From the IMG/VR virus record IMGVR_UViG_3300036770_005462, positions 8,103 through 72,102 of that record: DNA of 64,000 nucleotides. One strand, written 5' to 3'. This stretch comes from a virus. This document shows, piece by piece, positions 23,312-54,597 of this stretch. The position numbers and the translations under genes are program-made. The notes beneath the pieces are model-generated. The model was not told the origin of the DNA, made no database searches, and saw nothing but the letters and a program-made list of their open reading frames with translations. Within the stretch, counting starts at the first letter, position 1. Each line of letters opens with the position of its first letter.

Positions 23312-26300
23312 TGGCGGGGCTTCGGCTTTACTCTCTTCCGCCTGAAGAGGAGCGCCCGCTTACCCCGTACGAACAGGCGGTACGCGGTGTCGATTCCTCG
23401 GGCGGTGAGTTCGGCCGGGGCGTAACTTCTGGCTTGCTTGGCGCTTTCGGTGGCGGCTACAACGCTACTGCGGGTGCCTTTCAGGAAGCGATGGGCGGCG
23501 ACCCCACGCGTTCCTACGACACGTCGCGAGGGCTGCTGCGCCGCGCCGGACAGGCCGCGCCCATCGTCAACAACTGGGACAAGGTCAATGGTGTTGGCGA
23601 CTTTCTCGATTACGCTGCGGGCGCTGCCGGACAAGGACTGGCATCGACGGCTCCGGGCGTAGCGGCGACGCTGCTGACTCGCAGTCCGCGGGTTGGCCTC
23701 GCCACGATGTTTCCGATGGAAATGGGCGAGTCAGTTGCAGCGACTCGCTTTGACCCCAGCATCCAGCAGCCCGACACTGCGACCATGCTGAGTGGCGCGG
23801 CCACTAAAGGCGCAGTGAATACCGCCATCGAGGCGGTGCCGTTCATGAACATCTTTGGTCGCGGTCCGCTGCGCCCGTTGATGAAAGCGGCAACGATGCC
23901 CGCTCGCGCTGGTGGACACATGCTGGCGGAAGGCGGCACCGAGCTGGCGCAACAGCGGGTCGGACAGCTTGCGCAGGACTACATGGTTCCGGGGCGCGAC
24001 ACCAGCGAAGACAACATGGAGTTGCGCGAGGCGTTTCTGCAAGGCACGCTGGGCGCAACCCCGTTCGCTGGCATGTCCCTCGCCGGCCACGCAGCGCGCG
24101 ATGCGGGCGTTGGAATGTCGAGTGCAATCGACAAGCTGTTTCCAGCAAAGGGCGAACCGACGGCGCTGGACGACCTCATCGAGTCGACGAAGAGCGTCGG
24201 TACGAAGCTGAAAGAGAAGTTCGACCCGGTCCTCGGCAAGGACACGGCCGAGACGATGGAGAACCTGCGCAAGCCGGTCGACGTCGACGCGCTGAACGAA
24301 GGCAAGCAGTTCAACCTGATGCGCCCCGGCGTGGACACGGCTGAAGACGACATCAAGAAGAAGCACAGCTTCCTGCGGCAGCAGCTGGGCAACAAGCACA
24401 CGTGGCTGGCCGAGCCGCTGGCGAAGGCGATGGACCGCTACCTACGTGGCGACACGCCGGGCGGCGACGACGCCAAGTTCAAGCAGGCGATCCTTGAAGC
24501 GTTCGACGGCAACGTCGAGCGGGCCAACGGCGTCATGGAACACTTCGCCAAGGCCGTCGAAGACTTCAGCGGCACGCTGGGCGAGCGCACCACGATCTAC
24601 GACACGGCGCGTGAGCCGTCGTGGGGCGACCGCGAGGCAGACGACGACACCGCGGCTGCGCCGGAAGGTCCGGCTATCGAGGAAGGCGGGCAGGAGTACA
24701 CGCCCAAGGCCAACTACCGCTTCGCCGGCACGGGCCGTCTGCGCCCGTACGAGAACCGCGCACAGGCTGGTGCGGCCCGCCGCGCGCTGGGAGCGGCTGA
24801 GGGCTCGAAGGTCAAAGTGCGCACGATGCTCGACTGGGCCCAAGAGCGTGGCAAGGACCCGGACAAGGCCCTGACCGACATGATCGGCGGACTGCGCTAC
24901 GACCTGAACGACATCCAGAAGCGGCTTCAGGATCGCGACATGCCGAAGGAGCAGCGCGAAGACTTGTTGCAACGCAGTAACGAGATCGTGTCGCTGCTGC
25001 GCAAGGCGATCCCGACAACTGACCCCGACACGGGCGAGATCACGGACTCCGCGACCGAGCGGCTGTCGAAGCTGTTCGTGCTGCGCGGCGAGGCTCTGCC
25101 GGCCGACGACCTGACTGCCACGTCGGAAGAGATCGCTGCCTACGCTGACAAGCGCGAGGCGTTTGGCGGGGCCAAGGGCGCGATGGTCAAGTTCCGCGCG
25201 CCGAACGGCAAGGTGCAGAACTTCAACGCGCGGCAGATCCTCGACCTCGGTCTGAAGTCGTGGAGCAAGCGCAACCCGGATCAGAAGTTCGTCGATGGCC
25301 CGGCGCACTGGCGGCGCGTGTATGAAGACGGCATCGCACGGCTGACGAACGCCGGGTACGTCCCGGATCAGTCGGAGCGCAACGGCGCGTTCCGTCCGTC
25401 GCTTGTCGTGCGCGACGGCGAGACCTACGGCGGGCTGGTTGAGAAGACGGCGCAAAGCGGCCAGACATTCGACGCGCTGCGCGACGAACAGTTTGGCGCA
25501 GACGCTGCGGCGGACCAGCGTGCCATCCTGAGCGAGCCGATGCAGGCGTCGCCGCAGGAGATTGCGGCACGTAAAGCGGAGGGCTGGGTTCCGCCGACGG
25601 TGGCTCCGGAAGAACAGAGTTCTGGCCGCGGCGACCGCATGGTCGAGACGAATCTGCTGAACCGCGAGAGCCAGCAGGGACCGGAAGGCAACGTCGGCGA
25701 GGGCTTCGACCCGACGCTGAACACGCTGCGCGATCAGGACCCGGACGGCCCGCGGCTGTTTGACGAGAACATCGTCAACAGCGCGAATCCCGACTTCGCC
25801 CCCGAGCGCCTCGAAGACACGCTGGCCAAGCCATACATGGTTCCGGACAAGCGGGCCAAGGGCGGCGCACGCAAGGCCAAGGGCGAGGAAGTCCGTGTCT
25901 CAGGCGCTCCGCTGGCGCAGCCGCAGGCTGCGACCGGTAGCAACTTGGAGAAGCTGCAGGGGCTGAAGGACCACATCGAGGCGTACCGCGCCAACCTAGA
26001 ACAGCGCGGCATCGACCCGACGAAGGCCCCGACGATGCGCCTGTTGCTCAAGCGCATGGCCGAGCTGGAAGCCGAGCGCACGAAGCTGACGAAGGAAGAC
26101 GTCGCCGCGGAGGAATCCGTAGCCGACACCGCCGCGCGCGAGGAAGCTAACCGTGCGCTCAAGCGGGAAGAGGCTGCGGCCGAGAAAACGCGCATGGCGG
26201 AAGTCACCAAGACACAGGTGATCGAGCCAGCGGAAAAACCCAAGGCTGCTCCAAAGAAATCCAAGAAGAAAGCCAAGGGCTACCGCTACGAGATCAAAGA

Positions 26301-29300
26301 CGACATGACCGAAGACGAGGTCGGCGAGACGCGCCGCCTCGAATTGATCAACGACCTGAAGAAGGCCGGCGGGGTCAACCTGCAGGACGTCATGGACGTT
26401 ATTGGCGAGCGCAAAGCCCGCGGCGTGAAGGTCATGCCGGGGCTGTTCACCAAGACCGGCATGCGCGTCGACATGCTCGCCGAGTGGATGGCCGAGAACG
26501 GCTACATCGCCGACGAGAGCGAGACCGACAAGGCGTGGGACATCGTCCGCGCCGCCACGGACAAGCAGGGCGTCTTCAAGATCGAGGATCAGGACGACCT
26601 CGGCCGTCGCCGCTTCGAAGAGCGGGCGAACAAGGAATACAGCCGGATGGATCTGTCCGGCGGGGCCGGCCAGAAGCTTACGGCCGACGAACGGCAGGCA
26701 CTGATCAAGGAGATCGTGCGGCTGCGCGGCACGCAGCTGCAGATCGCGTTCAAGGAGTTCGCCCAGATGGGTCCGGCCAAGCTGGACGCCAAGGGCAACC
26801 CGATCCTTGACGCCAACGGCGACCCGGTGCGGCAGGGTGCGTCTGGCGAGTGGTCGAAGGACAAGACCGCTGCCCACGCGCAGAAGATCATCACGCTGGC
26901 TGTCGACATTGGCTTTTCCAACGCGATGTCGGTTGCGCACCACGAGGCGGTGCACGACTTCTTCGCGGCGCTGCGCAGTGCGGATTCCTCGCCGGAAATG
27001 CGCAACATCGCCATGACTATCGAGCGTGTTGCGGAATTACCACACATCCGGAAACAGCTCGAAACGCTGCTGAAAAAGCACCCGGAAGCGCTGGAACAGC
27101 TCAAAAACCCTGAAGAGCGCGCAGCCTACCTGTTCCAGTTCTGGAAGGCGGGCCTCATCAAGGATCTGGCTCCATCGGCGCGCAATTGGTTCGAACGTCT
27201 GCTGAAGTTCCTCCGCGACGTGCTGGGCATCGTGTCGCTGGAAGAGAAGGGCGAGAAGCTGATGCTGGCGCTGGACGCCGGCAAGTTCACTGACGCCAGC
27301 ACCGTCGGTCGCGTGGTGGCCCAGATGAAGCTGGAAACCGCCGGCGACAAGCTGCAGCGCGTGGCTCCTGCGCTGTGGCATGTCGGAAACGTCGTCATGG
27401 CGAGCGTCACCGACCGCATGCGGCTGACTGAGGTGCCGGCCATCATGGCAATCGCCGACCGCCTGCACCGGGATGTCAGTCGGCAGACTGGCATGCGGGA
27501 CGACCGCCGCCCGGGGGCTACGAAAGCTGACCGGCGTAACGACCCCACCGAGCAGACCGACTTCCTTGACGCCAAGCAGCGCGCTAGCGGTATCTGGTAC
27601 TCGCAGCTGCTGAACCTGTTTCAGGGGGCCGACAAGTTCCAGATCGCCGACGCGCTGGAAGCGCTGCAGTCGCAGGAAGACAGCACGGACCCGATGGTGG
27701 TCAAGATCCGCGCCTTCCTGAAGCGCTTTCACGAGTACCTGTCGAAGGCTGACGTGATGGTCATGGACGACAGCCCGTACGAGAAGATCGACTCGAAGGG
27801 CAAGACCGTGTGGGTCTCGGGCGACGCAGCGCGGCGCTGGGTCCCGATTGCCGAGCGGCAAGTCGGGAACTACTTCCCGCGTTCGTGGGACCGCGAGAAG
27901 ATCATGGCCCACAAGGACGCGTTCGTGGACCTGATCGTGCAGAAGGGCCGCGAGGGCAACAAGACCGTGACGCGCGAGCGGGCACTGGAAATCTTCGACA
28001 CGATGACCAGCGCCGAGCAGGACGAGATCGCGGACGGCGCGGCGTTCACGCCGTACCTGATGAGCGCCAACACCCGGGCGCTGCGCTTCATTACCAAGGA
28101 CAACGCCAAGGACTTCGCCAAGTTCCAGAAGAAGGACATGGTGGCGATCCTGTCCACGTACACCTATCAGGCCGTGCACCGGGCGGAGTTCACCCGCTAC
28201 TTCGGCCATGACGGGCAGTGGATCAGGGAGAAGCTGGCGGAGGCCGAAGCTCAGGGTGCTACGCCCGAGCAGATGGCGACCGCGCGCAAGGGCGTCGAAG
28301 CCATGCTGGGCTCGCTGGGCCGCGACATGACTGAAGGCACCCGCAAGCTGATGACCTCGCTGATGGCGTACGAGAACATCGTGCTGCTGCCGCTGGCGCT
28401 GGTGAACAACTTCATGGACGTGCTGCAGATCGGGCTGCGTACCGGCGACCTGACCGAGTCATTCAACGCCATGAAGCAGGGGGTCATCGGCTTGAAGCGG
28501 CAGATCATGCGGGAGGGCCCGGACGAAGCCGAGCAGTTCTCGCGCTTGCTGGGCATGATCGACGAGAACGTCGAGCTGGCCAGCTACGGCATGCTGTACG
28601 ACGGTCACTTCATGGGCGGCATGGCGAAGAAGGTCAGCGACAAGTTCTTCCGCTGGAACGGCATGGCGACGTGGAACACGCGCATGCGCGTGGCGGCGAC
28701 GCAGGCCGGGGTGCGCTTCATCGAGCGGCACGCCGACAAGGCGCTGAAGGGTGACGAGCAGTCGATCCGCTGGCTGAAAGAGCTGGGGCTGGAAAAGAGC
28801 GACGTGCGGCGCGACAGCAACGGCAAGCCGATGTTCAAGCGCGAAGACTGGGCGCAGAAGCTGAACAAGCCGGTCGACAGCAAGGAAGTCATCGCCGCCG
28901 CTGACCGCATGCAGAAGGCGCTGTTCCTGTTCGTCGACAGTGCCGTGATCCGGCCCTCCGCGGCGCACCGGCCGATCTGGGGCTCCGATCCGCACTGGAT
29001 GCTGGTGTTCCACCTGAAACAGTTCACGTACAGCTTCCAGCAGGTGGTGCTGAAGTACACCCGCAAGGAACTGCAGCACGGCAACAGCTTCCCGGCCATC
29101 GCACTGATGATGTACGTGCCGTTCGCGATGGTGACCGACCTTACCCGGTCGGCCATCGTCGGACGCCCAATCGACTTCTCGCTAAGTGGGTTAATGGGTA
29201 GCGCAGTACGCAATTCGGCCGTGCTGGGTACTGGCACCTTCGGCATCGACGCGTGGAACGACCTTGGCAAGAATCAGGTGCCGGGCGCGTCGTTCCTCGG

Positions 29301-29430
29301 ACCCACGGCAGGTCACGCAATTCAGCTGCTGCAAACCATCGCCGGAAGCCCGCAGGACAGCATGTCACAGGCGGTCTTGCGCTCGCTGCCGGCTTCGCCA
29401 ATCCTGCGTGGTATCGATGCCCGGATCTGA
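23311..29430 (+). CDS. Giant virion-associated protein (2039 aa), likely an internal/ejection protein
   Basis: Uninterrupted 6.1-kb ORF, translationally coupled to the upstream gene. It contains a lone HExxH (AHHEAVHDF) at about residue 1220. No RNAP motifs are recognised. Confidence 0.6.
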   Translation: MAGLRLYSLPPEEERPLTPYEQAVRGVDSSGGEFGRGVTSGLLGAFGGGYNATAGAFQEAMGGDPTRSYDTSRGLLRRAGQAAPIVNNWDKVNGVGDFLDYAAGAAGQGLASTAPGVAATLLTRSPRVGLATMFPMEMGESVAATRFDPSIQQPDTATMLSGAATKGAVNTAIEAVPFMNIFGRGPLRPLMKAATMPARAGGHMLAEGGTELAQQRVGQLAQDYMVPGRDTSEDNMELREAFLQGTLGATPFAGMSLAGHAARDAGVGMSSAIDKLFPAKGEPTALDDLIESTKSVGTKLKEKFDPVLGKDTAETMENLRKPVDVDALNEGKQFNLMRPGVDTAEDDIKKKHSFLRQQLGNKHTWLAEPLAKAMDRYLRGDTPGGDDAKFKQAILEAFDGNVERANGVMEHFAKAVEDFSGTLGERTTIYDTAREPSWGDREADDDTAAAPEGPAIEEGGQEYTPKANYRFAGTGRLRPYENRAQAGAARRALGAAEGSKVKVRTMLDWAQERGKDPDKALTDMIGGLRYDLNDIQKRLQDRDMPKEQREDLLQRSNEIVSLLRKAIPTTDPDTGEITDSATERLSKLFVLRGEALPADDLTATSEEIAAYADKREAFGGAKGAMVKFRAPNGKVQNFNARQILDLGLKSWSKRNPDQKFVDGPAHWRRVYEDGIARLTNAGYVPDQSERNGAFRPSLVVRDGETYGGLVEKTAQSGQTFDALRDEQFGADAAADQRAILSEPMQASPQEIAARKAEGWVPPTVAPEEQSSGRGDRMVETNLLNRESQQGPEGNVGEGFDPTLNTLRDQDPDGPRLFDENIVNSANPDFAPERLEDTLAKPYMVPDKRAKGGARKAKGEEVRVSGAPLAQPQAATGSNLEKLQGLKDHIEAYRANLEQRGIDPTKAPTMRLLLKRMAELEAERTKLTKEDVAAEESVADTAAREEANRALKREEAAAEKTRMAEVTKTQVIEPAEKPKAAPKKSKKKAKGYRYEIKDDMTEDEVGETRRLELINDLKKAGGVNLQDVMDVIGERKARGVKVMPGLFTKTGMRVDMLAEWMAENGYIADESETDKAWDIVRAATDKQGVFKIEDQDDLGRRRFEERANKEYSRMDLSGGAGQKLTADERQALIKEIVRLRGTQLQIAFKEFAQMGPAKLDAKGNPILDANGDPVRQGASGEWSKDKTAAHAQKIITLAVDIGFSNAMSVAHHEAVHDFFAALRSADSSPEMRNIAMTIERVAELPHIRKQLETLLKKHPEALEQLKNPEERAAYLFQFWKAGLIKDLAPSARNWFERLLKFLRDVLGIVSLEEKGEKLMLALDAGKFTDASTVGRVVAQMKLETAGDKLQRVAPALWHVGNVVMASVTDRMRLTEVPAIMAIADRLHRDVSRQTGMRDDRRPGATKADRRNDPTEQTDFLDAKQRASGIWYSQLLNLFQGADKFQIADALEALQSQEDSTDPMVVKIRAFLKRFHEYLSKADVMVMDDSPYEKIDSKGKTVWVSGDAARRWVPIAERQVGNYFPRSWDREKIMAHKDAFVDLIVQKGREGNKTVTRERALEIFDTMTSAEQDEIADGAAFTPYLMSANTRALRFITKDNAKDFAKFQKKDMVAILSTYTYQAVHRAEFTRYFGHDGQWIREKLAEAEAQGATPEQMATARKGVEAMLGSLGRDMTEGTRKLMTSLMAYENIVLLPLALVNNFMDVLQIGLRTGDLTESFNAMKQGVIGLKRQIMREGPDEAEQFSRLLGMIDENVELASYGMLYDGHFMGGMAKKVSDKFFRWNGMATWNTRMRVAATQAGVRFIERHADKALKGDEQSIRWLKELGLEKSDVRRDSNGKPMFKREDWAQKLNKPVDSKEVIAAADRMQKALFLFVDSAVIRPSAAHRPIWGSDPHWMLVFHLKQFTYSFQQVVLKYTRKELQHGNSFPAIALMMYVPFAMVTDLTRSAIVGRPIDFSLSGLMGSAVRNSAVLGTGTFGIDAWNDLGKNQVPGASFLGPTAGHAIQLLQTIAGSPQDSMSQAVLRSLPASPILRGIDARI

Positions 29431-40500: not shown

Positions 40501-41649
40501 TCATTCAATCCTCACGACTTCGCCAAAGGGGGGATTTTCGTCGGTGATCATGGCCCACATCACCGGCCATTGCACGTCTCGTTCTTCGGGGTACGTGCCC
40601 CAGCCGTCAGTCAGGTAGATTACGCACTTGGGCTCGATGCCGTTTTCTTCGAGCCACTTGAATGGCGGACGGAAATCCGTACCGCCGCCGCCTTTGGCGT
40701 CGACGAGCGCCGCAGGCAGTTCGTCTCCCACGTCGGCTTCGATTACGCGATGCACGATGGCATCGCAGTCGATGACGTAGATCTTGCTGGGCTGCACGTC
40801 GAGCGCAATGGACTCGATCTCGCCGTTGAACTGACGTAGGGCTTCTGGTGTGCTATAGATCGAACCGGACGTATCGCGGATGATAGCGATGGGCCCCACG
40901 CGCTCGCTGTCGCGTGCCGGCAGGTACAAGCCCTCGCTGATGAAGCGCCGGTTGGCTTTGTTCCAGCTTTCCTCATCCCGAGCTTTTTCGCTGATGAACC
41001 GGCGCAACGGGTGTTTCCACTCGATCTTCGGTTCCAGCGCCTCGTCGAGGAACTTGTCCAGATGTGCGGGCATGCGCCCCGCCATCTTGGCGGCATGACG
41101 CGCTGCAGCGACGGCTTGTCGCCACTCGGATTCAGCCTGCTTGTTCAGGACGTCCTGCGACTGCTTACCGTCGTTGGGCGTGTCCCGTACTTCGCCACAG
41201 CCGCCGGGGTCGTCGCCTTCCTTGTCCCAGCCGCCGGGAGGTTCAGGCAGCTGCGTGTAGATCTGCTCGGCGCTCATGTTGGCGTACTGCGGGCTTTCCA
41301 GTGCGCCGTCCGGCAGCTTGTACTTCTTGCTGATCAGTGGATTCAGCGCGTAGTCGCACGCGACATTCCACTTCTTGTGGTGCCGGTTACCACGGCGCGT
41401 GTGATGAAGTAGGGCCGGGTGCATCAGTTCGTGTACGAGTAGCCCTCGACGTTCTTCGCCTGTCAGGCTCAGAACGTACTTCATGTTGTAGCCGATGGTT
41501 GCGCCGTCGCACCACGCGGTGTCGCACGTTGGGTCCTCGCGCATCTTCATGCGCAACGCCAATACCCCATAGAAGGGCTCGGACATGACGAGTTCAGTCC
41601 GGGCCTTCACCATGGGGTTTACGTTGGTGAGGATCTTAGCTGGCATCAA
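40501..41649 (-). CDS. Zn-metallopeptidase-like (HELMH) + von Willebrand factor A domain protein, partner of the MoxR ATPase
   Basis: HELMH motif at about residue 83. The C-terminal half (IRDTSGSIYS...VIYLTDGWG) is VWA-like with a MIDAS-like DxSGS. Confidence 0.55.
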   Translation of the reverse strand: MMPAKILTNVNPMVKARTELVMSEPFYGVLALRMKMREDPTCDTAWCDGATIGYNMKYVLSLTGEERRGLLVHELMHPALLHHTRRGNRHHKKWNVACDYALNPLISKKYKLPDGALESPQYANMSAEQIYTQLPEPPGGWDKEGDDPGGCGEVRDTPNDGKQSQDVLNKQAESEWRQAVAAARHAAKMAGRMPAHLDKFLDEALEPKIEWKHPLRRFISEKARDEESWNKANRRFISEGLYLPARDSERVGPIAIIRDTSGSIYSTPEALRQFNGEIESIALDVQPSKIYVIDCDAIVHRVIEADVGDELPAALVDAKGGGGTDFRPPFKWLEENGIEPKCVIYLTDGWGTYPEERDVQWPVMWAMITDENPPFGEVVRIE

Positions 41650-41869
41650 CGATTTCCCTTGCGCGCTTACGGCCGGTATCGGTCAGTGCGACGTACGACG
41701 TGCCGTTAATTTGCCCATCGTAATCGATGAAACTGTATGCCTTCAGATCTTCAAGTCGCGATACCACCAGCGGAATCGACATATTGGTACGTCGAGCGAT
41801 CTTCTTGACGCTGCCGTTGAAGTCGACCAGCTGCTTCAGGATCGGGCCGTAGTATTCCTTCGTGATCAT
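41636..41869 (-). CDS. Small winged-helix-like DNA-binding protein
   Basis: 77 aa with an HTH-like segment. Confidence 0.3.
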   Translation of the reverse strand: MITKEYYGPILKQLVDFNGSVKKIARRTNMSIPLVVSRLEDLKAYSFIDYDGQINGTSYVALTDTGRKRAREIVDAS

Positions 41870-42456
41870 TTGGCGAGAATTGCAGATTTGGTCAAGGCAG
41901 TTTGAAGGGCCGGATCAAGCGCGGTAATTTCCTTGCTGCGCTTTTCTGCTTTCTTGTTGTGTTCAGCCAGAATGTCGGCTGGCACATGCATCAGCACAGT
42001 TGGCCAGACGGCGATCACTTGCTTTAGCGACAAGCACTTCTTCAGCAGCGTTTCGAGCCCTTGCTTCAGTACGACTTTCTCGTCGACCAGCGTTTTACGT
42101 CGTTGCAGCATCGGCTCGATGATGTGCCAGTCCGATGCGTTTTCGTCGTGTATCGCTACTCGGACCGAACTGTCCGGATAGGGATATGCCTGTGTCTTGT
42201 CGGGGCTGACCATCCACTCGAAATGCATCGGACGGTCGATCTTCACGTTGAAATACGACAGCTGTTTGAAGTACTTCGGCGGGACGCCTTTCATTGCTTC
42301 GATATCGGCAGTTGGAACGACCATTTTGTACAGGCGGTCGGCCGGAAAGAACGTTTTGATCTCTGTTTCTAGCTTGGTGATCTGCTGCGTCAATCCATTG
42401 CAGGCGGATGTGATGATCTTCGTACGAAGATCGTCGTTCAAGCGGACGTTTGCCAT
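41866..42456 (-). CDS. Hypothetical protein (196 aa)
   Basis: ORF coupled to its neighbours. Confidence 0.4.
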   Translation of the reverse strand: MANVRLNDDLRTKIITSACNGLTQQITKLETEIKTFFPADRLYKMVVPTADIEAMKGVPPKYFKQLSYFNVKIDRPMHFEWMVSPDKTQAYPYPDSSVRVAIHDENASDWHIIEPMLQRRKTLVDEKVVLKQGLETLLKKCLSLKQVIAVWPTVLMHVPADILAEHNKKAEKRSKEITALDPALQTALTKSAILAK

Positions 42457-42465
42457 AGGCTCCTA

Positions 42466-43572
42466 CTAGGTTATTGCTTCTGCGTTGCGAGCGGCCCAAC
42501 TATTGAATGCCTTGGTATCGGCCAGTTCGGGAATCCGAGTGACCGAATCTTTCACTAGCGTCACGCCGAACTCCGTCGGTAGACGATCTGCATACTGGAT
42601 CACGCGTTCGAAGTTGTCGGACGTGGACTTGACGGCCAGACCGGACACCGTGGCGTACAGCGTGGCAGGCTCTTCCGGCACCGGCGCGTTGCCCGGGTTC
42701 ATCAAAATGTTGTCGAGGTTCGGTGCGCGGCGCGAGTACTTCATGTACTCGACGAATTTCGCTGCTGGGCCCTCGCCTACTACCGAGCCGTAGGTCTCGT
42801 ACTCGACTTCCGCCGGAATCCCCGCGGACAACAGACGAGAAAGGAAGGCCCAGCTGCGTGGTGTGGCGAATGCGCGGGCATCCTTGGCGCGTTGTTGCAT
42901 CTGTTGTTGACGGACTTTGTCGTCACCAACATCGAATTCGTTCAGGAGATCGGGGGCGGAGGAGATAAAGCCGAGAACGTCCGAGTGGACGCCATGAGTG
43001 AGTGCCCAATGCCGCCAGTCATCCAGATTCACTTCCACTTCGATGTGGATGAACCGGTTGCGCAGCGCCATTGGCATCTGGTTGACTATGGATCGATCCT
43101 GTAAGCGGTTACCCGCAGCGAGGACGGCCCATCCAGCTGGCAGTTCGTAATTACCCAGCCGTCGGTCGAGGACCAATTGATATGCAGCGGCCATCGTTCC
43201 GACACTGCCGCTGTTGATTTCGTCGAGGAACAGGATTCCACGGCTGTCGAGGTCGTGGGGAAGAAAGTCAGGGGGGTTCCAGACCGTGCGTCCGTTTTCG
43301 CGGTGCGGTATTCCACGGAGGTCGACGCTGTCGAGCTGGCTGATTCGAACGTCCCGCAGCTCCAAACCGTGATCTTCACAGAGCTGCCTCACGAGGTCGG
43401 ACTTTCCGATCCCGGGTGGGCCCCACATCATCGCGGGAATCTTCGCTAGTACTGCTGTTCGAAGTACGGCTGACGCCTGACTGGGACGCATGCAACGAGG
43501 CTCCTTGCTGGTTACTACGAATGAACATTCGAACGAGTGCCGCGAATGCAGCAACTCCGAGAGATACATCAA
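42466..43572 (-). CDS. MoxR-like AAA+ ATPase
   Basis: Walker A MWGPPGIGKS, Walker B ILFLDEIN, and sensor/Arg AGNRLQDRS...ALRNRF. Confidence 0.7.
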   Translation of the reverse strand: MMYLSELLHSRHSFECSFVVTSKEPRCMRPSQASAVLRTAVLAKIPAMMWGPPGIGKSDLVRQLCEDHGLELRDVRISQLDSVDLRGIPHRENGRTVWNPPDFLPHDLDSRGILFLDEINSGSVGTMAAAYQLVLDRRLGNYELPAGWAVLAAGNRLQDRSIVNQMPMALRNRFIHIEVEVNLDDWRHWALTHGVHSDVLGFISSAPDLLNEFDVGDDKVRQQQMQQRAKDARAFATPRSWAFLSRLLSAGIPAEVEYETYGSVVGEGPAAKFVEYMKYSRRAPNLDNILMNPGNAPVPEEPATLYATVSGLAVKSTSDNFERVIQYADRLPTEFGVTLVKDSVTRIPELADTKAFNSWAARNAEAIT

Positions 43573-49004: not shown

Positions 49005-49178
49005 CTAACTACTGCGGCGAGCGGTGCCTTCTTCGGGAGACCGCTTTAGGGTTTCTTCCTTCTGCGGCGGCTTCGACTCTTCCTTATTGCTAGTGACGAA
49101 TCCGCTGACTATCGCGATGAGAATGCCAGCGATAGCTAGCATAATCAGTACTTCGATGATGGTGAATCCGCGTTTCAT
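49005..49178 (-). CDS. Type IV pilin/pseudopilin-like small protein (57 aa) with a prepilin N-terminal motif
   Basis: MKRGFTIIEVLIMLAIAGILIAIV matches the prepilin cleavage/methylation motif (G-F-T-[LI]-I-E). Its ATG overlaps the SPFH stop (ATGA). Not in the ORF track because it is under 60 aa. Confidence 0.5.
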   Translation of the reverse strand: MKRGFTIIEVLIMLAIAGILIAIVSGFVTSNKEESKPPQKEETLKRSPEEGTARRSS

Positions 49179-49987
49179 TTGCCAACCCCTTGTAGGTTGA
49201 TGAAAGGCAAAGCACCGCTACCGAAGTTATAGTTCGGCAGCTTGCCGTCCCACTTCTGTACCGCTTCATACTCGACCAGCTTCGGATTTGATGCTAGTGC
49301 ATTGGCGCGGATACGCATCGATTCCGCTTGTGCTTGTGCTGTGATGACCGCTTGCTTGGCTTGTTCCTGCACTTGCACAGTTTTGTTCTTCTCTTCGATG
49401 GCGCGTTGCACAGCCACGACCTTGTCTTCGACCGATTTCTCGAATTCCTTGTGATACTGGATGTTCACGAGCTCGATGCGGTCGAAGATGACGTTGCGAG
49501 TTGCAAGTGCTTCGGTGATAGCGGTTTGAATCTCCGCTGTAGCTTTAGCTCGATGTTCGATCAGGTCGACGGCGTCGTAAGTGCCGATTACCTGCTTCAT
49601 GATGCCGCTGACTACTTGCGGAACTAGAGCGGTTTCCCACTGGCGTCCCACGTCCCGATAGACCGTGTGCGCCTCATTCGGATTCAGATGGAAGTTCATC
49701 ACGTACTTGATGTCCGCTTGCTGGACATCCTTGGTGTACGTGTTGGCGGTACCGTCCCACTTCTGCACTTGCACGTTGATCTCGACAATCTTCGTGGTAA
49801 GCGGATTGAAGAAGTACAGCCCCTCGGTCAAGGAGCCCGCTTCTTTGTCGACTTCACCGAAGCGGATTTGCACGCCACGGTGTCCCGTGTCGACCTGTTC
49901 GACACCGGCACAGCCGCCGATGACGCCCGCAAGCAGAACGATGGACAACAGTCCACCGATGGCGAGCCATTTCCCCATGCCTTCCAT
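49175..49987 (-). CDS. SPFH/band-7 (stomatin/prohibitin/HflKC-like) membrane protein
   Basis: N-terminal TM followed by the SPFH core (GHRGVQIRFGEV...TKDVQQADIKYVMNF...) and a C-terminal coiled coil. Confidence 0.65.
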   Translation of the reverse strand: MEGMGKWLAIGGLLSIVLLAGVIGGCAGVEQVDTGHRGVQIRFGEVDKEAGSLTEGLYFFNPLTTKIVEINVQVQKWDGTANTYTKDVQQADIKYVMNFHLNPNEAHTVYRDVGRQWETALVPQVVSGIMKQVIGTYDAVDLIEHRAKATAEIQTAITEALATRNVIFDRIELVNIQYHKEFEKSVEDKVVAVQRAIEEKNKTVQVQEQAKQAVITAQAQAESMRIRANALASNPKLVEYEAVQKWDGKLPNYNFGSGALPFINLQGVGK

Positions 49988-49989
49988 GC

Positions 49990-50094
49990 TTACTTCCTTT
50001 TGTTTGTGGGTTGAAAGACCGCGGCGACCAGCAGACCAACCGCAACGCCGACGCCGAAGAGAATTGCGCCGACAAAAACAGAACCGAGGACCAT
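49990..50094 (-). CDS. 34-aa single-TM peptide (MVLGSVFVGAILFGVGVAVGLLVAAVFQPTNKRK) translationally coupled upstream of the SPFH gene
   Basis: SD GGAGAAACCTC precedes the ATG. Its TAA stop is followed 2 nt later by the SPFH ATG. Not in the ORF track. Confidence 0.45.
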   Translation of the reverse strand: MVLGSVFVGAILFGVGVAVGLLVAAVFQPTNKRK

Positions 50095-50382
50095 GAGGTT
50101 TCTCCGTTGATGAATTCTTGCCAGTTACCCTCGTCTGGCGGCTGCGCGTTGAGGAATCGGCGGGGCCCCGCTATTCCGCGGCAGTCGGGGAAGGTGGACA
50201 AATAGGAGGGTACACACCCCCGCCGATGTTTCTGTCTATCGGTCAGAGACAGAGGGTTCACGTCCGAAGACAGTACCCACAACGATCAGACTTTCGGTGC
50301 TGACCAACCGAGAGGCGGAGACTGCCGCATCAGATCCGGGCATCCGATCCCGGCAACGGAGGGTTCTAATAGCACCCACAAC

Positions 50383-50793
50383 TCAGGAGGCCCGGGCCAT
50401 CGAAGGCATGCGGCTGTCCACATCGGACTCCGCAGGGGCCGAAACTTGTTCGACCAGCTCGATCAGTTCATTCAGCTGGCGTTGTAGTTCAGCGTTCTCC
50501 TGCTCCTGAATGTAGAACGCTCGCATCAGTCCGCCGGACACGAAACCTGCCAGACCGACCAGCACCATGGTCTCGATAGCCCAGTGCAGCAATCCGGGGC
50601 CGGCGAATATAACAAGCCCGAGGCTCACCCAGTGAGACATGCAATAAGGGCAGCTGAACAAGTAGTGCAGCATGTCCCACTGCCGCAGCTTCAGATGCGT
50701 CCTGATCGGTTCCGTAATGTGCGTTTTGGTGATCGTGAAGGAGATCGCTCCCGCGGCGACTCCCAGTGCCAGTAGCGTCAGCCATTCCATGAT
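50383..50793 (-). CDS. Membrane protein (about 135 aa, likely start MEWLTLL) with a C-terminal coiled coil
   Basis: Multi-TM N-terminus containing an SCPYC motif. Its ATG lies 3 nt after the stop of the upstream K/E-rich gene. Confidence 0.45.
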   Translation of the reverse strand: MMEWLTLLALGVAAGAISFTITKTHITEPIRTHLKLRQWDMLHYLFSCPYCMSHWVSLGLVIFAGPGLLHWAIETMVLVGLAGFVSGGLMRAFYIQEQENAELQRQLNELIELVEQVSAPAESDVDSRMPSMARAS

Positions 50794-50799
50794 CACCGT

Positions 50800-51005
50800 C
50801 CGCAGCAACTGCGCCCGCAGCACAGGAACTCGCGCTCGCGGGCGCGTTTGGCCTTGCGCTCTTCTTCCTCGCGCTTGGCGCGTTTGGCCGCTTCGATGGC
50901 TTTCGCACGGGCTTCGGCGACTTTGGCAAGCAGCACTTCGTCGGCAGACAGCTCGGTTTCGGGTTTGGGAGCGTCGCCTTCGTTAGGCTTGCGCTGTTTC
51001 AACAT
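50800..51005 (-). CDS. Small K/E/R-rich protein ending in a CCGRSCCGR motif (about 67 aa from MLKQRK)
   Basis: Its start (ATG) is adjacent to the AAA ATPase stop (TGAACATG). It has a charged helical body and a C-terminal CC-x3-CC. Confidence 0.4.
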
Positions 51006-52419
51006 GTTCAACGGTCCTTGTGTGATGCAATGCGTTAAGAGCCGCAATTTCACGCGGGCCCGCAAAGTCAGTCAGGGCCTCGCTGTGATCGACGTTGGTG
51101 TTGGCGATGAAGATGGACTTGACTGCCCGATGAACGTCGTCCGGCAGGACTCCGCTTGCCTTCGACGAACCCGCCGCAAGGTCGCGGTGGAGCGCATTGC
51201 TGGTTGCGTGTTCAACCGCTCCCACGATAAGCGCTCCACTGACCAGATGGGAGAGGCAAAAGCGACTCCGAGTCCGGTCCGAGAATGCGACGTCGTAATA
51301 CGCATGCTCAGGAGCGAAAAGCGCGTCGGTGAGCGTAGAAGCAAGGCTCGGCACGTCATGACCTTCTGCAATCGTGGTGGTTGAGAAGGCGAGCCGGGCA
51401 ATTTCCAGTGTTGAACGAATATCGGGACGCGATACGCGTATCTTTCGATCCATGCGGCCTTCGCGCGTGATGGCGCTGTCCAGAGACGACGCGCGGTTAG
51501 TCGCGACGACAACAATCGCGCCATTTTCGTCGAGCCCATCCATCTCAGCCAGAAATGTCGGGACAACGGTTTTTTCCATGAACGCATGACGATTGCTTCG
51601 GGAGCCAAGAAGGGCATCTGCTTCATCGATGAAAATCACGGCTGGTGTGCCGGTCTCCTTCTGATGGAATCGGGCGTCGGCGAAGATATCGCGAATGCGC
51701 GACTCCGTCACGCCGACGTACTCGTTCAGCAGTTCTGCGCCTTTGATGTAGATAAAACGGGTTTTTGTGCCGCCAACAGCCGTGGCGAGTGCCTTGCCCA
51801 GCATGGTCTTGCCGCAGCCGGGCGGGCCTTCGAGTAGCACGCCTTTGATGGGGCGCTTGCCGTAGCCTTTGTACAGCTCCGGATACTTCCGCGGTAATTC
51901 GACGGCCTCGATCAGTGCCAGCTTGGCGTCGTGAGCCCCGCCGATGTCATCCCACGTGACGTTGGTTGACGCCGTGAAGATGTATTGCTCGGCCTTGTTG
52001 GGGTAGTGCGCCACGATCACCATGCCGTTGGTGTCGAGGACAACCTTGTCGCCTTCCTTGATGGTCTTGCCGAAGCTGCCACGCAAGACGGTGCGTTCCA
52101 TGCCGTTGATGCTGATCTCGACGATCTGGCCGTCGAGTTCACGAGTCACTGGCACCAGCTCGCCCATGCGCGCCGGAAAATCCAGATGATCGACATATTG
52201 CATCGATTTGGGATGCAGCAGAATGCTGTCGCCGGAAGCAACCGCGGCTTCCTTGGGTTTGCCGATCCGGAGCATAGCTCCGCCGGCAGCGATCAACATG
52301 TATGTCTTGCCGGTGGCAAGCACAGTTCCGACAGGCAACGGAGCTTGTGCAATCCGTTCCAGTTCGCCTGACAGTTCTTCGACTTGAGACTGCAACTCCT
52401 TGACAGCGGTAGCGCTCAT
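50983..52419 (-). CDS. Classical-clade AAA+ ATPase with an N-terminal coiled coil and an OB-like domain (PAN/ARC/Mpa-like architecture)
   Basis: N-terminal coiled coil (ELQSQVEELSGELERI), beta-rich interdomain, Walker A GPPGCGKT, Walker B IIFIDEAD, and second region of homology (SRH) ATNRASSLDSAITREGRMDRKI. There is no C-terminal HbYX motif. Confidence 0.7.
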   Translation of the reverse strand: MSATAVKELQSQVEELSGELERIAQAPLPVGTVLATGKTYMLIAAGGAMLRIGKPKEAAVASGDSILLHPKSMQYVDHLDFPARMGELVPVTRELDGQIVEISINGMERTVLRGSFGKTIKEGDKVVLDTNGMVIVAHYPNKAEQYIFTASTNVTWDDIGGAHDAKLALIEAVELPRKYPELYKGYGKRPIKGVLLEGPPGCGKTMLGKALATAVGGTKTRFIYIKGAELLNEYVGVTESRIRDIFADARFHQKETGTPAVIFIDEADALLGSRSNRHAFMEKTVVPTFLAEMDGLDENGAIVVVATNRASSLDSAITREGRMDRKIRVSRPDIRSTLEIARLAFSTTTIAEGHDVPSLASTLTDALFAPEHAYYDVAFSDRTRSRFCLSHLVSGALIVGAVEHATSNALHRDLAAGSSKASGVLPDDVHRAVKSIFIANTNVDHSEALTDFAGPREIAALNALHHTRTVEHVETAQA

Positions 52420-52659
52420 TCAACTCCCCGGTTGAAAGTAATGCGATAGAAATGCCGGTCTCTCCCGGCTGTCTCCACTTCATTCTGTATCACAGGGTCG
52501 TGTACCAGCTTCTACGCCGGGCACGCGGGATCTGTGCTTTACCCCTCGGGGTCTGTTCTGCCGTCCCACAGCAGCGAGGGGGGAATAGGGTGGGCTACTC
52601 CAACAACGGGGATACTGTGGGGAGCGCTACCGCCCGCCGCCGTTTCGCCCGTTGTACGT

Positions 52660-54056
52660 CTAGTGACTTTCCGTGGTCATCACATCGCGAACGATGTTGC
52701 GGAACTGGCTGTCGAGGCTCGGCAGCTTCTCGGGGCCGCGATCCTTGTTGAGCAGGCGCAGCTGGCCCTGCATCGTGGACGCGGCTTCGATCAGTGCGGC
52801 TTCGGTCAGCATCTTGACCTTCTCGCCGGGCTTCTGCAGCGACAGCTGCGACAACTTCGCCCGCTTGACGACTTCCGCGATCACCGCGGGGATCGTGCCG
52901 GACAGCAGTTCGCCGACCTTGTGCAGGTCGGTGTCCTTGGCCAGCCGGTCGCCTGCGTAGACACGCAGGAGTTTCTCGACGGCAGGACCGTCAGGTTCGG
53001 CCACTTCGATCACGGCGTCGAGACGCCCCGGGCGCAGCATTGCCGGGTTGATGTTTTCGAGGTGGTTCGACGTCAGGATCACCATGATGTTCGCCGACTT
53101 GGTGTCGATGCCATCAATGATGTTCAAGATGTCGTCCATTTCCACCGTGCGTTCGCCGTTGAGCGAGCGGTCGATGTCTTCGCAGAAGATCGCTGCCGCC
53201 GGCTCTTGGTACTGCTTGGCGAAGCTCACTGCGTCGGCCAGTTCGTCGGCACGGCCGACGTAGATGAACGTCACGCCAGCCTCGACTGCGCGTTTGGCGG
53301 CAACTTTCGCTGCCAGTGTCTTGCCGGTGCCGTATTTGCCGCCGAGCAGCACACCGCGCTTGATCGGAATGCCGTTGGCCTTCAGGTCCTTGTGTCGCGT
53401 GATCGGCGTGAACAAGTTCACGTTGATCGAATTCTCGACTTCTTCAGGGAAGACCATCAGCGACTCGTCGACGTCGTCGTGCCGCATGAATTTCGGTTCC
53501 GGCATCGCCAGCCGGTCGCCATCTTCGTCGGTGAAGCGGATCTTGATGGCTTGACCGCGGTAGATCGAGTTCAGCTTCAGATACTCGCGCACTTCCTTGT
53601 ACAGCGCTTTGACGGTGTCTTCGTCCTTGCGCTTGACACTGGCGACGAGCGCGAAGCAGAGCAGGCCATCTTTCTTGTTGGCATCGCACTGCACGTAACC
53701 GTCTTGAATCGTCGGCATGCTGAACCGGCCCCACGGGACGTTGTGCATCTTCCCGGGTCCGATCTCGATGGCGATCATCTGCGGCGGTTGCTTGCCGAAA
53801 AAGCTCGGAACACCTTCCGCCGCGGCCCAGCCGAACTTCTGACGCAGGACTTGTTCCAGCGCGTAAGCGCCGTCCCACGGGAAGACGTTGAACGTCTCGT
53901 TGATGACGACCGGCTCTTCGAGGTACTTCAGCCGGCGATTCAGCAGATCGATGGCGTCCGGAATCTTCATCTTCTCCGGAAGAATCAGTTGCTCGCCGGC
54001 ATGAACAACTTCAGCGACGACAACTTTGGGGCCTTTCTTTTCCAACGTTTCACCCA
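52660..54056 (-). CDS. Second classical AAA+ ATPase with a roughly 250-aa N-terminal domain (likely start MGETLEKK, SD AAGGAG)
   Basis: Walker A GGKYGTGKT, Walker B IFCEDID, and SRH SNHLENINPAMLRPGRLD. The ORF-track start at 54153 is probably an upstream in-frame extension. Confidence 0.7.
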
Positions 54057-54210
54057 TGTGGGCGCTCCTTTTGTGAGTGGAACTACATGACAAGACGCAC
54101 GGCAGGTTTTGCCGACGTTTCCTTCGTGGTCCGCGTAAGCTCGTGCGGTCCAAACTTCGTGAATAGAATTACGATGAAGACGAAGAGCCAGAAAAGAGAG
54201 GCTCCAACGA

Positions 54211-54597
54211 CTACGTCGATGACGGTGATTTTCGAACGCGTTTTACGAGTCGCGGCAGATACTTCGTTTTCAAGATTTGCGCGATCTCTTTGAAGCTGCG
54301 GCCACCGTCGTTCAGCTCGATCAATTCGTCGCGGTCCTCGATGGACAGTCCCAGCTGACGAACTAAGGTAGTGGGCGGATGAGTGTCGTCGCCGTTGTAG
54401 GTGTAGTCCCCGTACTCGTCCTTGACCCATTTCTTGCCTCCTTGATGGGTATGAAGATCGATGGCCACGCCCCAGACGCAAAACTCTCCGTCGGCGTTGT
54501 GCAATGTGCCGTCGCACTGTTGGTATTGGCCGCTTTCGAGCGCGCAGATCCATTGCTTCAGACGACACACCCGGGGGTGCTCTTTCAAATTACCCAT
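54211..54597 (-). CDS. Hypothetical Cys/His-containing protein (128 aa)
   Basis: SD GGGAGAAATTACGC precedes the ATG. Confidence 0.45.
   Translation of the reverse strand: MGNLKEHPRVCRLKQWICALESGQYQQCDGTLHNADGEFCVWGVAIDLHTHQGGKKWVKDEYGDYTYNGDDTHPPTTLVRQLGLSIEDRDELIELNDGGRSFKEIAQILKTKYLPRLVKRVRKSPSST

Follow-up and report, generated by a model that had tools for sequence, protein, structure and literature searches.

Why does a phage carry two AAA+ ATPases of the classical clade side by side, and do the two work together? The question is raised by a 64,000-nucleotide (nt) stretch of viral DNA (IMG/VR virus record IMGVR_UViG_3300036770_005462, positions 8,103 to 72,102; hereafter the window), in which two AAA+ genes, here called AAA-1 and AAA-2, are followed by genes for a cysteine-tailed mini-protein and a small DUF1360-like membrane protein. 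Our best explanation, to which as a whole we assign a probability of roughly 0.5, is that the locus holds two independent ATPase systems that lie next to each other in this phage lineage alone. AAA-2 would form, together with the mini-protein and the DUF1360-like protein, a Pup-Mpa-like unfoldase at the membrane, free of both ligase and proteasome, and we propose that AAA-1 acts alone or with unlinked partners.

All four genes lie on the minus strand. AAA-1 (52660-54057; 465 amino acids (aa) from its ATG) is separated from AAA-2 (50983-52419; 478 aa) by a GC-rich, structured spacer of 240 nt (52420-52659). The ATG of the mini-protein gene (50793-51005; 70 aa) overlaps the end of AAA-2 by 23 nt, and the DUF1360-like gene (50383-50790; 135 aa) starts 2 nt past the mini-protein stop. 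The initial annotation, made from the letters alone, had placed these co-oriented open reading frames (ORFs) essentially exactly, giving only the end of AAA-1 one base short, at 54056. The same gene calls recur in four independent assemblies, three of this phage (contig ~72 kb) and one of a close relative, L299. The AAA module is complete in both ATPases, and all four assemblies contain the 240-nt spacer; the pair is therefore not a single gene split by a frameshift.

Both ATPases match the Pfam family AAA (PF00004; E 1.9e-13 and 1.9e-35), and among solved structures their best sequence matches are Cdc48/p97, Rpt, FtsH and Mpa rather than MoxR or ClpX, in agreement with their earlier placement in the classical clade. 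Each ATPase carries an Arg-finger motif, LRPGRLD or TREGRMD, with arginines that do not vary across its family. PADLOC matched the two ATPases to IetA and TRIP13 through the AAA core only, a generic AAA similarity; PADLOC and NCBIfam gave no match for the mini-protein, the DUF1360-like protein or the SPFH protein encoded further downstream.

A conserved three-gene module in uncultured phages

We drew loci of AAA-2 homologues from assemblies and from IMG/VR, fetched flanks of about 4-7 kb on either side of the homologues and scanned the loci with custom hidden Markov models (HMMs). The single AAA-2 protein found no relatives in a scan of IMG/VR; an alignment-based scan did find them. A DUF1360-like gene lies 130-900 nt downstream of AAA-2 in 21 of the 42 distinct loci that have an AAA-2-type N-domain. 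Between the two genes, 20 of these 21 loci encode a Cys-tailed ORF of 60-90 aa with a charged helical middle (all 21, counting a CxxC variant), against a background of such tails in 3.4% of small ORFs of the same loci. In an enlarged set DUF1360 occurs in 27 of 48 AAA-2 loci, where it is the sole widely conserved neighbour besides a six-locus cluster of type-B mini-proteins; no protease is found among the conserved neighbours in these 48 loci. A reverse search with CPYCxSHW, a motif of the membrane protein, found AAA-2 just upstream in 15 of 38 loci, and credible Cys-tailed mini-proteins occurred only in those loci that have AAA-2. The mini-protein and membrane protein had been suspected of belonging with an ATPase, and across loci the ATPase to which they are linked is AAA-2. 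Recurrence of this kind, read from sequence, shows AAA-2, the Cys-tailed mini-protein and the CPYC membrane protein to be a conserved module of many uncultured phages.

Type-B mini-proteins, with three Cys in a tail of the form [IL]CxCGxxxCxIGP[FM], occur in seven further AAA-2 loci, six of them without DUF1360, and two loci hold a type-A mini-protein with DUF1360 plus a type-B mini-protein. Type-B genes follow AAA-2 in L007 (8470-8871), L017 (7370-7726), L023, L029, L034, L035, L041 and L026. Of the four instances of the pattern C[GE][DN]P[NG]C among 21,725 ORFs, three fall in type-B mini-proteins and the fourth in the N-terminus of an ATPase from the cultured phage Strzyga, a distribution that hints at a fusion-type link between the Cys motif and the ATPase N-terminus.

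Cellular ARC/Mpa loci (Actinomycetota, Nitrospirae, Verrucomicrobia and others) have neither the mini-protein nor the DUF1360 partner, except for the two closest 'MAG' (metagenome-assembled genome) contigs, which carry the partners and are probably phage DNA. None of the module's three parts as such was found in cultured phages. Brevundimonas phages Strzyga and Polewnik, which give the best cultured-phage matches to AAA-2, were considered as carriers and set aside; their proteins are without the coiled coil, the OB domains and both partners. The closest of these relatives, the 'proteasome-associated ATPase' of Brevundimonas phage vB_BpoS-Strzyga (L003 5566-6978), has the N-terminal Cys motif CGDPNCMEC, of the C[GE][DN]P[NG]C type, where the coiled coil and OB are missing. 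In the literature on DUF1360, on phage proteasome-associated or proteasomal ATPases and on phage Pup or Mpa we found no description of the module.

AAA-2 resembles Mpa along its full length

The NCBIfam model TIGR03689 (pup_AAA) aligns with aa 4-473 of AAA-2 over model positions 22-508 of 512. The score of 247.3 bits lies below the equivalog cutoff of 504.75 bits. PAN models align with aa 117-365, the AAA part, only, and reach 185 bits versus 247 for pup_AAA. We built an AlphaFold 2 (AF2) model on 49 homologues (pLDDT 89), which has a helix (residues 3-24), two beta barrels (30-78 and 88-139), an AAA module and a lid that includes a beta hairpin. The helix (52348-52413, minus strand) is the predicted coiled coil, and its heptad-like charged N-terminus is kept in the 49 homologues. 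The barrels (52003-52332, minus strand) are modelled as tandem OB domains, each with a conserved GD motif, in which G63 and G123 are invariant.

Foldseek against the Protein Data Bank (PDB) ranks Mycobacterium tuberculosis Mpa in all of the best 30 places, aligned end to end (E ~1e-35, TM-scores 0.55-0.76, with 0.65-0.76 for the crystal and substrate-engaged entries). Rpt subunits come next at E 1e-24, eleven orders weaker. At about 28% identity AAA-2 aligns over its full length with the Mpa structures 5kwa, 5kzf and 7pxc, and an HMM of its N-domain finds matches in 78 of 80 cellular ARC/Mpa loci. Sequence and model together indicate that AAA-2 is a full-length relative of Mpa/ARC, not an equivalog. 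The initial annotation had described it as PAN/ARC/Mpa-like, with a coiled coil and OB domain and no HbYX tail, and TIGR03689, the AF2 model and Foldseek all uphold that description.

The motor residues are kept. Invariant in the 49 homologues are the Walker A sequence GPPGCGKT, D265-E266 of Walker B, N308 of sensor 1, and R319 and R322; in the YVG pore loop V235-G236 is invariant and Y234 is the majority residue. Conservation of Walker A and B, the YVG loop, sensor 1 and the arginines of the second region of homology predicts that AAA-2 is active as a threading motor, and its sequence motifs and predicted fold are those of a hexameric, Mpa-like motor of this kind.

What this motor would feed is a separate matter. 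Neither a Pfam protease domain nor a transmembrane segment is present in AAA-2. At their C-terminal ends, the 49 homologues conserve no HbYX or GQYL tail and no penultimate Tyr. Searches with a Dop/PafA HMM and 20S sequences, drawn from 30-33 cellular Mpa loci and controlled by 84 Dop/PafA matches in cellular loci, found no Dop/PafA or 20S gene, either in the window or in any of the flanks fetched for the phage loci. With neither a 20S gene there nor a docking tail, AAA-2 cannot feed a proteasome encoded nearby. The AAA-2 of the window ends in ...VETAQA. About half of the 49 phage homologues end in -AEAA, -AETA, -AKAA or -AA, and the -ETAQA ending here (50986-51021) is of similar make; such small-residue tails recall ssrA-type C-terminal degrons.

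A Cys-tailed mini-protein with features of Pup

The mini-protein begins with a basic stretch (MLKQRKP), continues with a central helix and ends in a Cys tail, which in translation reads CCGRSCCGR (50796-50822, minus strand). In L299 the tail reads HSCCGCCR, and elsewhere two to four Cys stand at the very end (CVC, CWCG, CGCG, CKC, CEC, CCGGVCCGG and others). The 20 aligned family members share a basic N-terminal motif (MLKQRKP, MEQERKKKK, MSAQEQIKKR), a G-rich linker and a helix of the pattern [DE]-[DE]-[VI]-L-x-x-[IL]-D-x-A-L. All 20 end in a Cys motif. Pup is ligated to lysines through a C-terminal GGQ or GGE tail, and no aligned mini-protein has one. On this defining tail, membership in the Pup family fails.

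Does the rest of the mini-protein resemble Pup? Pfam searches with ten single mini-proteins returned noise only and no Pup match, so a comparison at the level of profiles was needed. As a reference we extracted 40 genuine Pups from cellular ARC/Mpa loci. The resulting Pup HMM aligned in register, if weakly, with some mini-proteins, and its best match among 9,417 phage ORFs was a Cys-rich ORF directly after AAA-2. Profile-profile alignment with hhalign gave a probability of 71% (P 3.7e-5) and paired the mini-protein helix with the Mpa-binding DxLLDEIDxVLE of Pup.

The strongest evidence comes from the reciprocal test, in which a mini-protein HMM stripped of the Cys tails searched 6,391 ORFs from the cellular ARC/Mpa loci. 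The matches at ranks 3-8 and 10-14 were genuine Pups, the best of them at E 9e-5; the best E of ten column-shuffled control profiles ranged from 0.56 to 13. A leave-two-out profile scored Pup at 3.3e-5 and a held-out family member at 2.8e-5. We regard the Pup-like character of the mini-protein as moderately supported: the profiles point to a signal that is real but small and in part compositional.

A membrane protein with an invariant CPYC motif

The third protein of the module has three hydrophobic segments, a C-terminal amphipathic helix and a charged C-terminal tail. It matches Pfam PF07098 with 24.3 bits against a cutoff of 21, over the second half of the profile only, and phrog_781 at E 1.4e-9. 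The CPYC motif (50641-50652, minus strand) stands at the start of the second hydrophobic segment. C47, P48, Y49, C50, H53 and W54 are invariant in 16 aligned homologues, and CxxC-x-HW is kept in a wider set of 23. Hydropathy and K/R counts suggest an N-out topology with three segments, which would put the K/R-rich first loop, CPYC and the amphipathic helix on the cytoplasmic side. A tblastn search of 50,697 GenBank phage records found no match to this protein. CPYCxSHW genes are also linked to thioredoxin-like genes (L252-L298; for example L266 3415-4294 and L264 267-1173), and the CPYCxSHW genes of that lineage lie ~0.8 kb upstream of a 555-aa gene.

AAA-1 as a probable Bcs1/YjoB-type ATPase

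AAA-1 belongs to phrog_10440 (E 2.6e-207) and shares 55-60% identity with proteins from N4-like (Pylas, Pollock, SP-058, Ea9-2) and KPP25-like phages. Its relatives appear in 67 GenBank phage records, so that the classical AAA type, which the initial annotation had called rare in phages, is uncommon but not rare. The homologues are labelled metalloprotease, FtsH, cell division protein or DNA helicase activity protein in GenBank. AAA-1 itself has no Pfam protease domain and no transmembrane region, and in both ATPases FtsH models match the AAA part only, far below cutoff. The labels 'FtsH' and 'metalloprotease' are over-annotations; mislabelled homologues without a protease domain include Pylas gp42, phiR18 and CRPAP1904.

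Three features set AAA-1 apart from a canonical unfoldase. In translation its Walker B reads ED (E293-D294; 53176-53181, minus strand) in place of the canonical DE, and F291, C292, E293, D294, D296 and R297 (FCEDIDR) are invariant in 45 homologues. Its structural model (pLDDT 84) runs from beta2 straight into helix 2, with no segment for pore loop 1. Its N-terminal alpha/beta domain (about aa 1-225; 53383-54057, minus strand), which has 40 invariant columns in the family, gave noise only when its profile was searched against the PDB and Pfam, and is covered only in fold alignments to Bcs1 and YjoB, with modest TM-scores of 0.32-0.50. Residues 1-20 are polar and modelled with low confidence, and the protein has no hydrophobic N-terminal segment.

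An ED in Walker B is exceptional to YjoB and Bcs1, which also share an N-terminal domain fold and an internal chamber (PMC9565160), and BCS1 orthologues in jumbo phages were noted earlier (Iyer et al. 2021; PMC7824862). Motifs and model indicate a Bcs1/YjoB-type ring ATPase rather than a canonical unfoldase. AAA-1 is more likely to act on folded proteins inside a chamber, in the manner of a chaperone or translocase, than to thread unfolded chains. The N-domain, formerly thought unique, probably has a match in the Bcs1/YjoB cap fold, and the earlier description of AAA-1 as an unfoldase does not hold against its ED Walker B, missing pore loop 1 and fold.

Neighbourhoods also separate AAA-1 from the module. 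The 78 AAA-1 loci have no conserved neighbour in common, and this phage alone has AAA-2 or DUF1360 within 5 kb; conversely, few of the 42 distinct AAA-2 loci have an AAA-1 gene close by. Because no neighbour is conserved across the 78 loci and only this phage has AAA-2 or DUF1360 nearby, a hetero-hexamer of the two ATPases is unlikely.

The spacer, the neighbouring genes and the host phage

The 240-nt spacer between the ATPase genes has 60% GC and folds better than shuffled sequence (z = -2.6). Within it, a terminator-like GC hairpin leads into a T-rich run, GCCGGGAGAGACCGGC-ATTTCT (52469-52454); the 'strong hairpin' reported earlier was a generous term for it, and the length and GC richness stood. 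A GGGGAG ribosome-binding site lies 6 nt before the ATG of AAA-2. The spacer is 92% identical to that of L299, with the first ~145 nt nearly unchanged, which suggests that it has a function; it is conserved to the same degree as coding DNA. Candidate roles are those of a regulatory RNA or of a phage promoter. Rfam gave no match across 49900-54400, and neither spacer has a sigma-70-like promoter, with promoter-like sites at the shuffle level (2 vs 1.7). Terminator-like sites are about twice the shuffle mean (15 vs 7.4). The window has no second copy of the 240-nt spacer and no repeated regulatory element that shares sequence with it.

Downstream of the module, ~400 nt past the membrane-protein gene, lies an SPFH/Band 7 gene (49175-49987). 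It is directly preceded by a 34-aa single-transmembrane ORF (49990-50094), which a 288-nt gap separates from the membrane-protein gene, and it overlaps an ORF for a 57-aa protein (49005-49178) with a type IV pilin-like N-methylation motif. All three are on the minus strand and resemble a separate small membrane operon (49005-50094). The initial annotation had linked the SPFH gene to the ATPases. Its downstream position stands; the functional link does not, since SPFH is found beside AAA-2 in no other lineage except for one opposite-strand copy, and we rejected it as a member of the module. Of the 78 AAA-1 loci, 5 have an SPFH gene within 5 kb.

The three-gene module is surrounded by genes of a replication region, namely a VapE/DUF5906 primase-helicase-like gene, MoxR and von Willebrand factor A (VWA) genes, DNA polymerase, helicase and nuclease. 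This setting points, tentatively, to an early or middle function rather than one in lysis. The MoxR-type AAA_5 ATPase (42466-43572) and a DUF2201 metallopeptidase-like/VWA protein (40501-41649), both on the minus strand, form a pair as in N4-like phages and constitute the third AAA+ system of the window (40501-43572). Very large structural ORFs lie on the plus strand, one of 2039 aa (23311-29430) and one of 896 aa (20621-23311); the C-terminal part of the 2039-aa protein matches virion structural families (phrog_30152).

By megablast against cultured phages, the sole match of the window is 417 nt within AAA-1, and positions 1-25000 gave no match. On nucleotide comparison the phage appears to have no close cultured relative. 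An N4-like identity was considered and rejected: the large ORFs include no virion RNA polymerase family, and the MoxR/VWA pair and AAA-1 are all that is shared with N4-like phages.

A proposed mechanism and its alternatives

How might the module work? We propose that the three tightly packed, overlapping or abutting genes encode a system that operates like actinobacterial Pup-Mpa, without ligase and without proteasome. The mini-protein would be a Pup-like, largely disordered adaptor. Its central helix would dock on the coiled coils of AAA-2, its basic N-terminus could enter the AAA-2 pore, and its Cys tail would be coupled, on the cytoplasmic side, to the invariant CPYC of the membrane protein, through a shared metal ion, as in the CD4/Lck zinc clasp, or through a disulfide. 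The outcome would be an unfoldase held at, or pulling on, a membrane protein and expressed with the genes of the replication region. The membrane protein would be either an anchor, in an FtsH-like arrangement assembled from separate parts, or the object pulled. A stronger version, which we advance only tentatively, is that the mini-protein is a true Pup homologue whose GGQ was swapped for a Cys tail that clamps to CPYC by zinc or disulfide, so that an Mpa-like unfoldase is recruited to the membrane or pulls on it.

Several observations weigh against the proposal. The resemblance to Pup is weak, no score exceeding 21.6 bits, and in part compositional, as a reversed profile still gives Pup at E 0.025, and the window's own mini-protein, taken alone, scores near zero against the Pup HMM. 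The coiled coil of AAA-2 is short, at ~22 residues; that of Mpa has ~50. The membrane topology rests solely on hydropathy and K/R counts. Roughly one AAA-2 locus in four is without a partner of either kind, and CPYC proteins of the DUF1360 type also occur without AAA-2. In 17 loci of one other phage lineage, the DUF1360-like gene directly follows a gene for an exported thioredoxin-like WCxxC protein, which hints at periplasmic redox chemistry rather than a cytoplasmic clasp.

Other readings of the same genes have to be set beside it. The module might be an actuator or timer in which the DUF1360-like protein is the substrate: AAA-2 would translocate along a Pup-like handle and gate, extract or inactivate the membrane protein, for example a timed holin-like or ion-leak protein. 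Cargo attached to Pup is the substrate in the established Pup-Mpa pathway, the three genes overlap or abut in a manner consistent with co-translation, and a small protein with three hydrophobic segments and a charged C-terminal tail has the general shape of class I holins. The same protein matches no holin family, only PF07098 and phrog_781, neither of which has an assigned function; the module sits among replication-region genes with no identified lysis cassette adjoining; and a metal clasp or disulfide would have to withstand the pulling force. No result here separates substrate from anchor, and we consider the timer unlikely. Somewhat more doubtful still is a redox role, with the DUF1360-like protein as a small membrane thiol-disulfide oxidoreductase, the Cys tail as its partner or substrate, and AAA-2 linked only via the mini-protein. 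CPYC is a glutaredoxin-type active-site sequence, invariant in the 16 aligned homologues and kept as CxxC in the wider set, and the thioredoxin-like neighbour of the 17 loci would fit; that neighbour is confined to one lineage, however, and may be mere synteny. The mini-protein, having no signal peptide and a high charge, should be cytoplasmic, where disulfides are not stable, and Cys-tailed mini-proteins occur only where AAA-2 is present.

The mini-protein could also be a charged, disordered filler or a regulator, for instance a pseudo-substrate inhibitor of AAA-2, with a Pup likeness that is compositional and Cys that bind metal on their own. Reversed and shuffled profiles still draw some Pups, single mini-proteins have no Pfam Pup match, and type-B mini-proteins (CxCGxxxCxIGPF, three Cys) occur without DUF1360. 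Yet the true-order profile reaches an E lower than that of every control by three or more orders of magnitude, the Pup alignments are in register at the N-terminal motif and at the helix, and two-Cys tails co-occur with CPYC proteins in 20-21 of 21 loci, which makes this account improbable. Highly improbable, finally, is the single machine of the initial annotation, in which AAA-1 and AAA-2, possibly as mixed hexamers, would extract or unfold host proteins together with the mini-protein, the membrane protein and SPFH. The two ATPase genes are adjacent and co-oriented here and in L299, and AAA-1-type genes lie within about 6 kb of AAA-2 in L007, L032, L040, L045, L269 and L275. The wider search for the pair told otherwise: 77 of 78 AAA-1 loci have neither AAA-2 nor DUF1360 within 5 kb, AAA-2 homologues are mostly without AAA-1, and cultured N4-like and KPP25-like phages have AAA-1 alone. 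The ring types differ and the N-domains are unrelated, a Bcs1/YjoB-like cap in one and a coiled coil with a double OB in the other; the mixed AAA rings known to us are made of paralogues of the same architecture. A structured spacer of 240 nt with a terminator-like hairpin parts the two genes, and SPFH accompanies AAA-2 on the same strand in no other lineage.

Significance

To our knowledge, Pup and Mpa are a degradation-tagging system of Actinobacteria and a few other phyla, always tied to a ligase and a 20S proteasome. If the Pup-Mpa-like reading of the module is true, the phage version would mean that Pup-Mpa recognition can be reused without covalent tagging or proteolysis and coupled through cysteines to a membrane protein. 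The mini-protein would be the first viral Pup-like protein, attached as a Pup-type handle to its target by something other than an isopeptide bond, and DUF1360/phrog_781 proteins would gain their first functional context. The analysis defines a compact three-gene module that is directly testable in vitro. It also corrects the annotation of the AAA-1 homologues in N4-like and KPP25-like phages, which appear to be of Bcs1/YjoB type and have no protease domain.

Comparison with known systems

AAA-1 shares with Bcs1 and YjoB the ED Walker B, a fold alignment of the N-terminal alpha/beta domain (of modest TM-score) and the lack of an aromatic pore loop 1. It differs in that its N-domain has no sequence similarity to theirs and, unlike Bcs1, it has no transmembrane anchor. 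With FtsH and HflK/C the module would have in common a classical AAA motor at the inner membrane face, as proposed here, and in this phage an SPFH gene 400 nt downstream. Unlike FtsH, AAA-2 has neither a protease domain nor a transmembrane segment, so that anchoring would run through two separate proteins, and SPFH is unlinked to AAA-2 in other lineages. PAN and Rpt resemble AAA-2 in coiled coil, OB, AAA motor and classical-clade motifs. PAN has one OB whereas AAA-2 has two, AAA-2 has no HbYX, and the matches in sequence and fold are weaker than those to Mpa.

For the proposed junction, the nearest parallel is the zinc clasp of CD4/CD8 and Lck, in which a CxC on one chain and a CxxC on the other share one Zn at the cytoplasmic face of the membrane (PMC7355011). 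The module has a CxC or CC on the mini-protein tail and CPYC on the membrane protein, a likeness of motif arithmetic only and not of homology.

The system most like the module is Mpa/ARC with Pup. AAA-2 has the coiled coil, the tandem OB and the classical AAA motor, and next to it is encoded a mostly disordered protein of 60-90 aa in which a QEQ-K-like basic motif, a G-rich linker and an acidic amphipathic helix are in register with Pup. The differences lie in AAA-2 itself (~28% identity, a sub-cutoff score, a short coiled coil and no GQYL or HbYX) and in its surroundings, where neither the window nor the flanks fetched for the phage loci yielded a Dop, PafA or 20S gene. The small phage protein ends in Cys, not in GGQ or GGE. 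The carriers are phages instead of Actinobacteria or Nitrospirae, and the phage module has a third partner of its own, the CPYC membrane protein.

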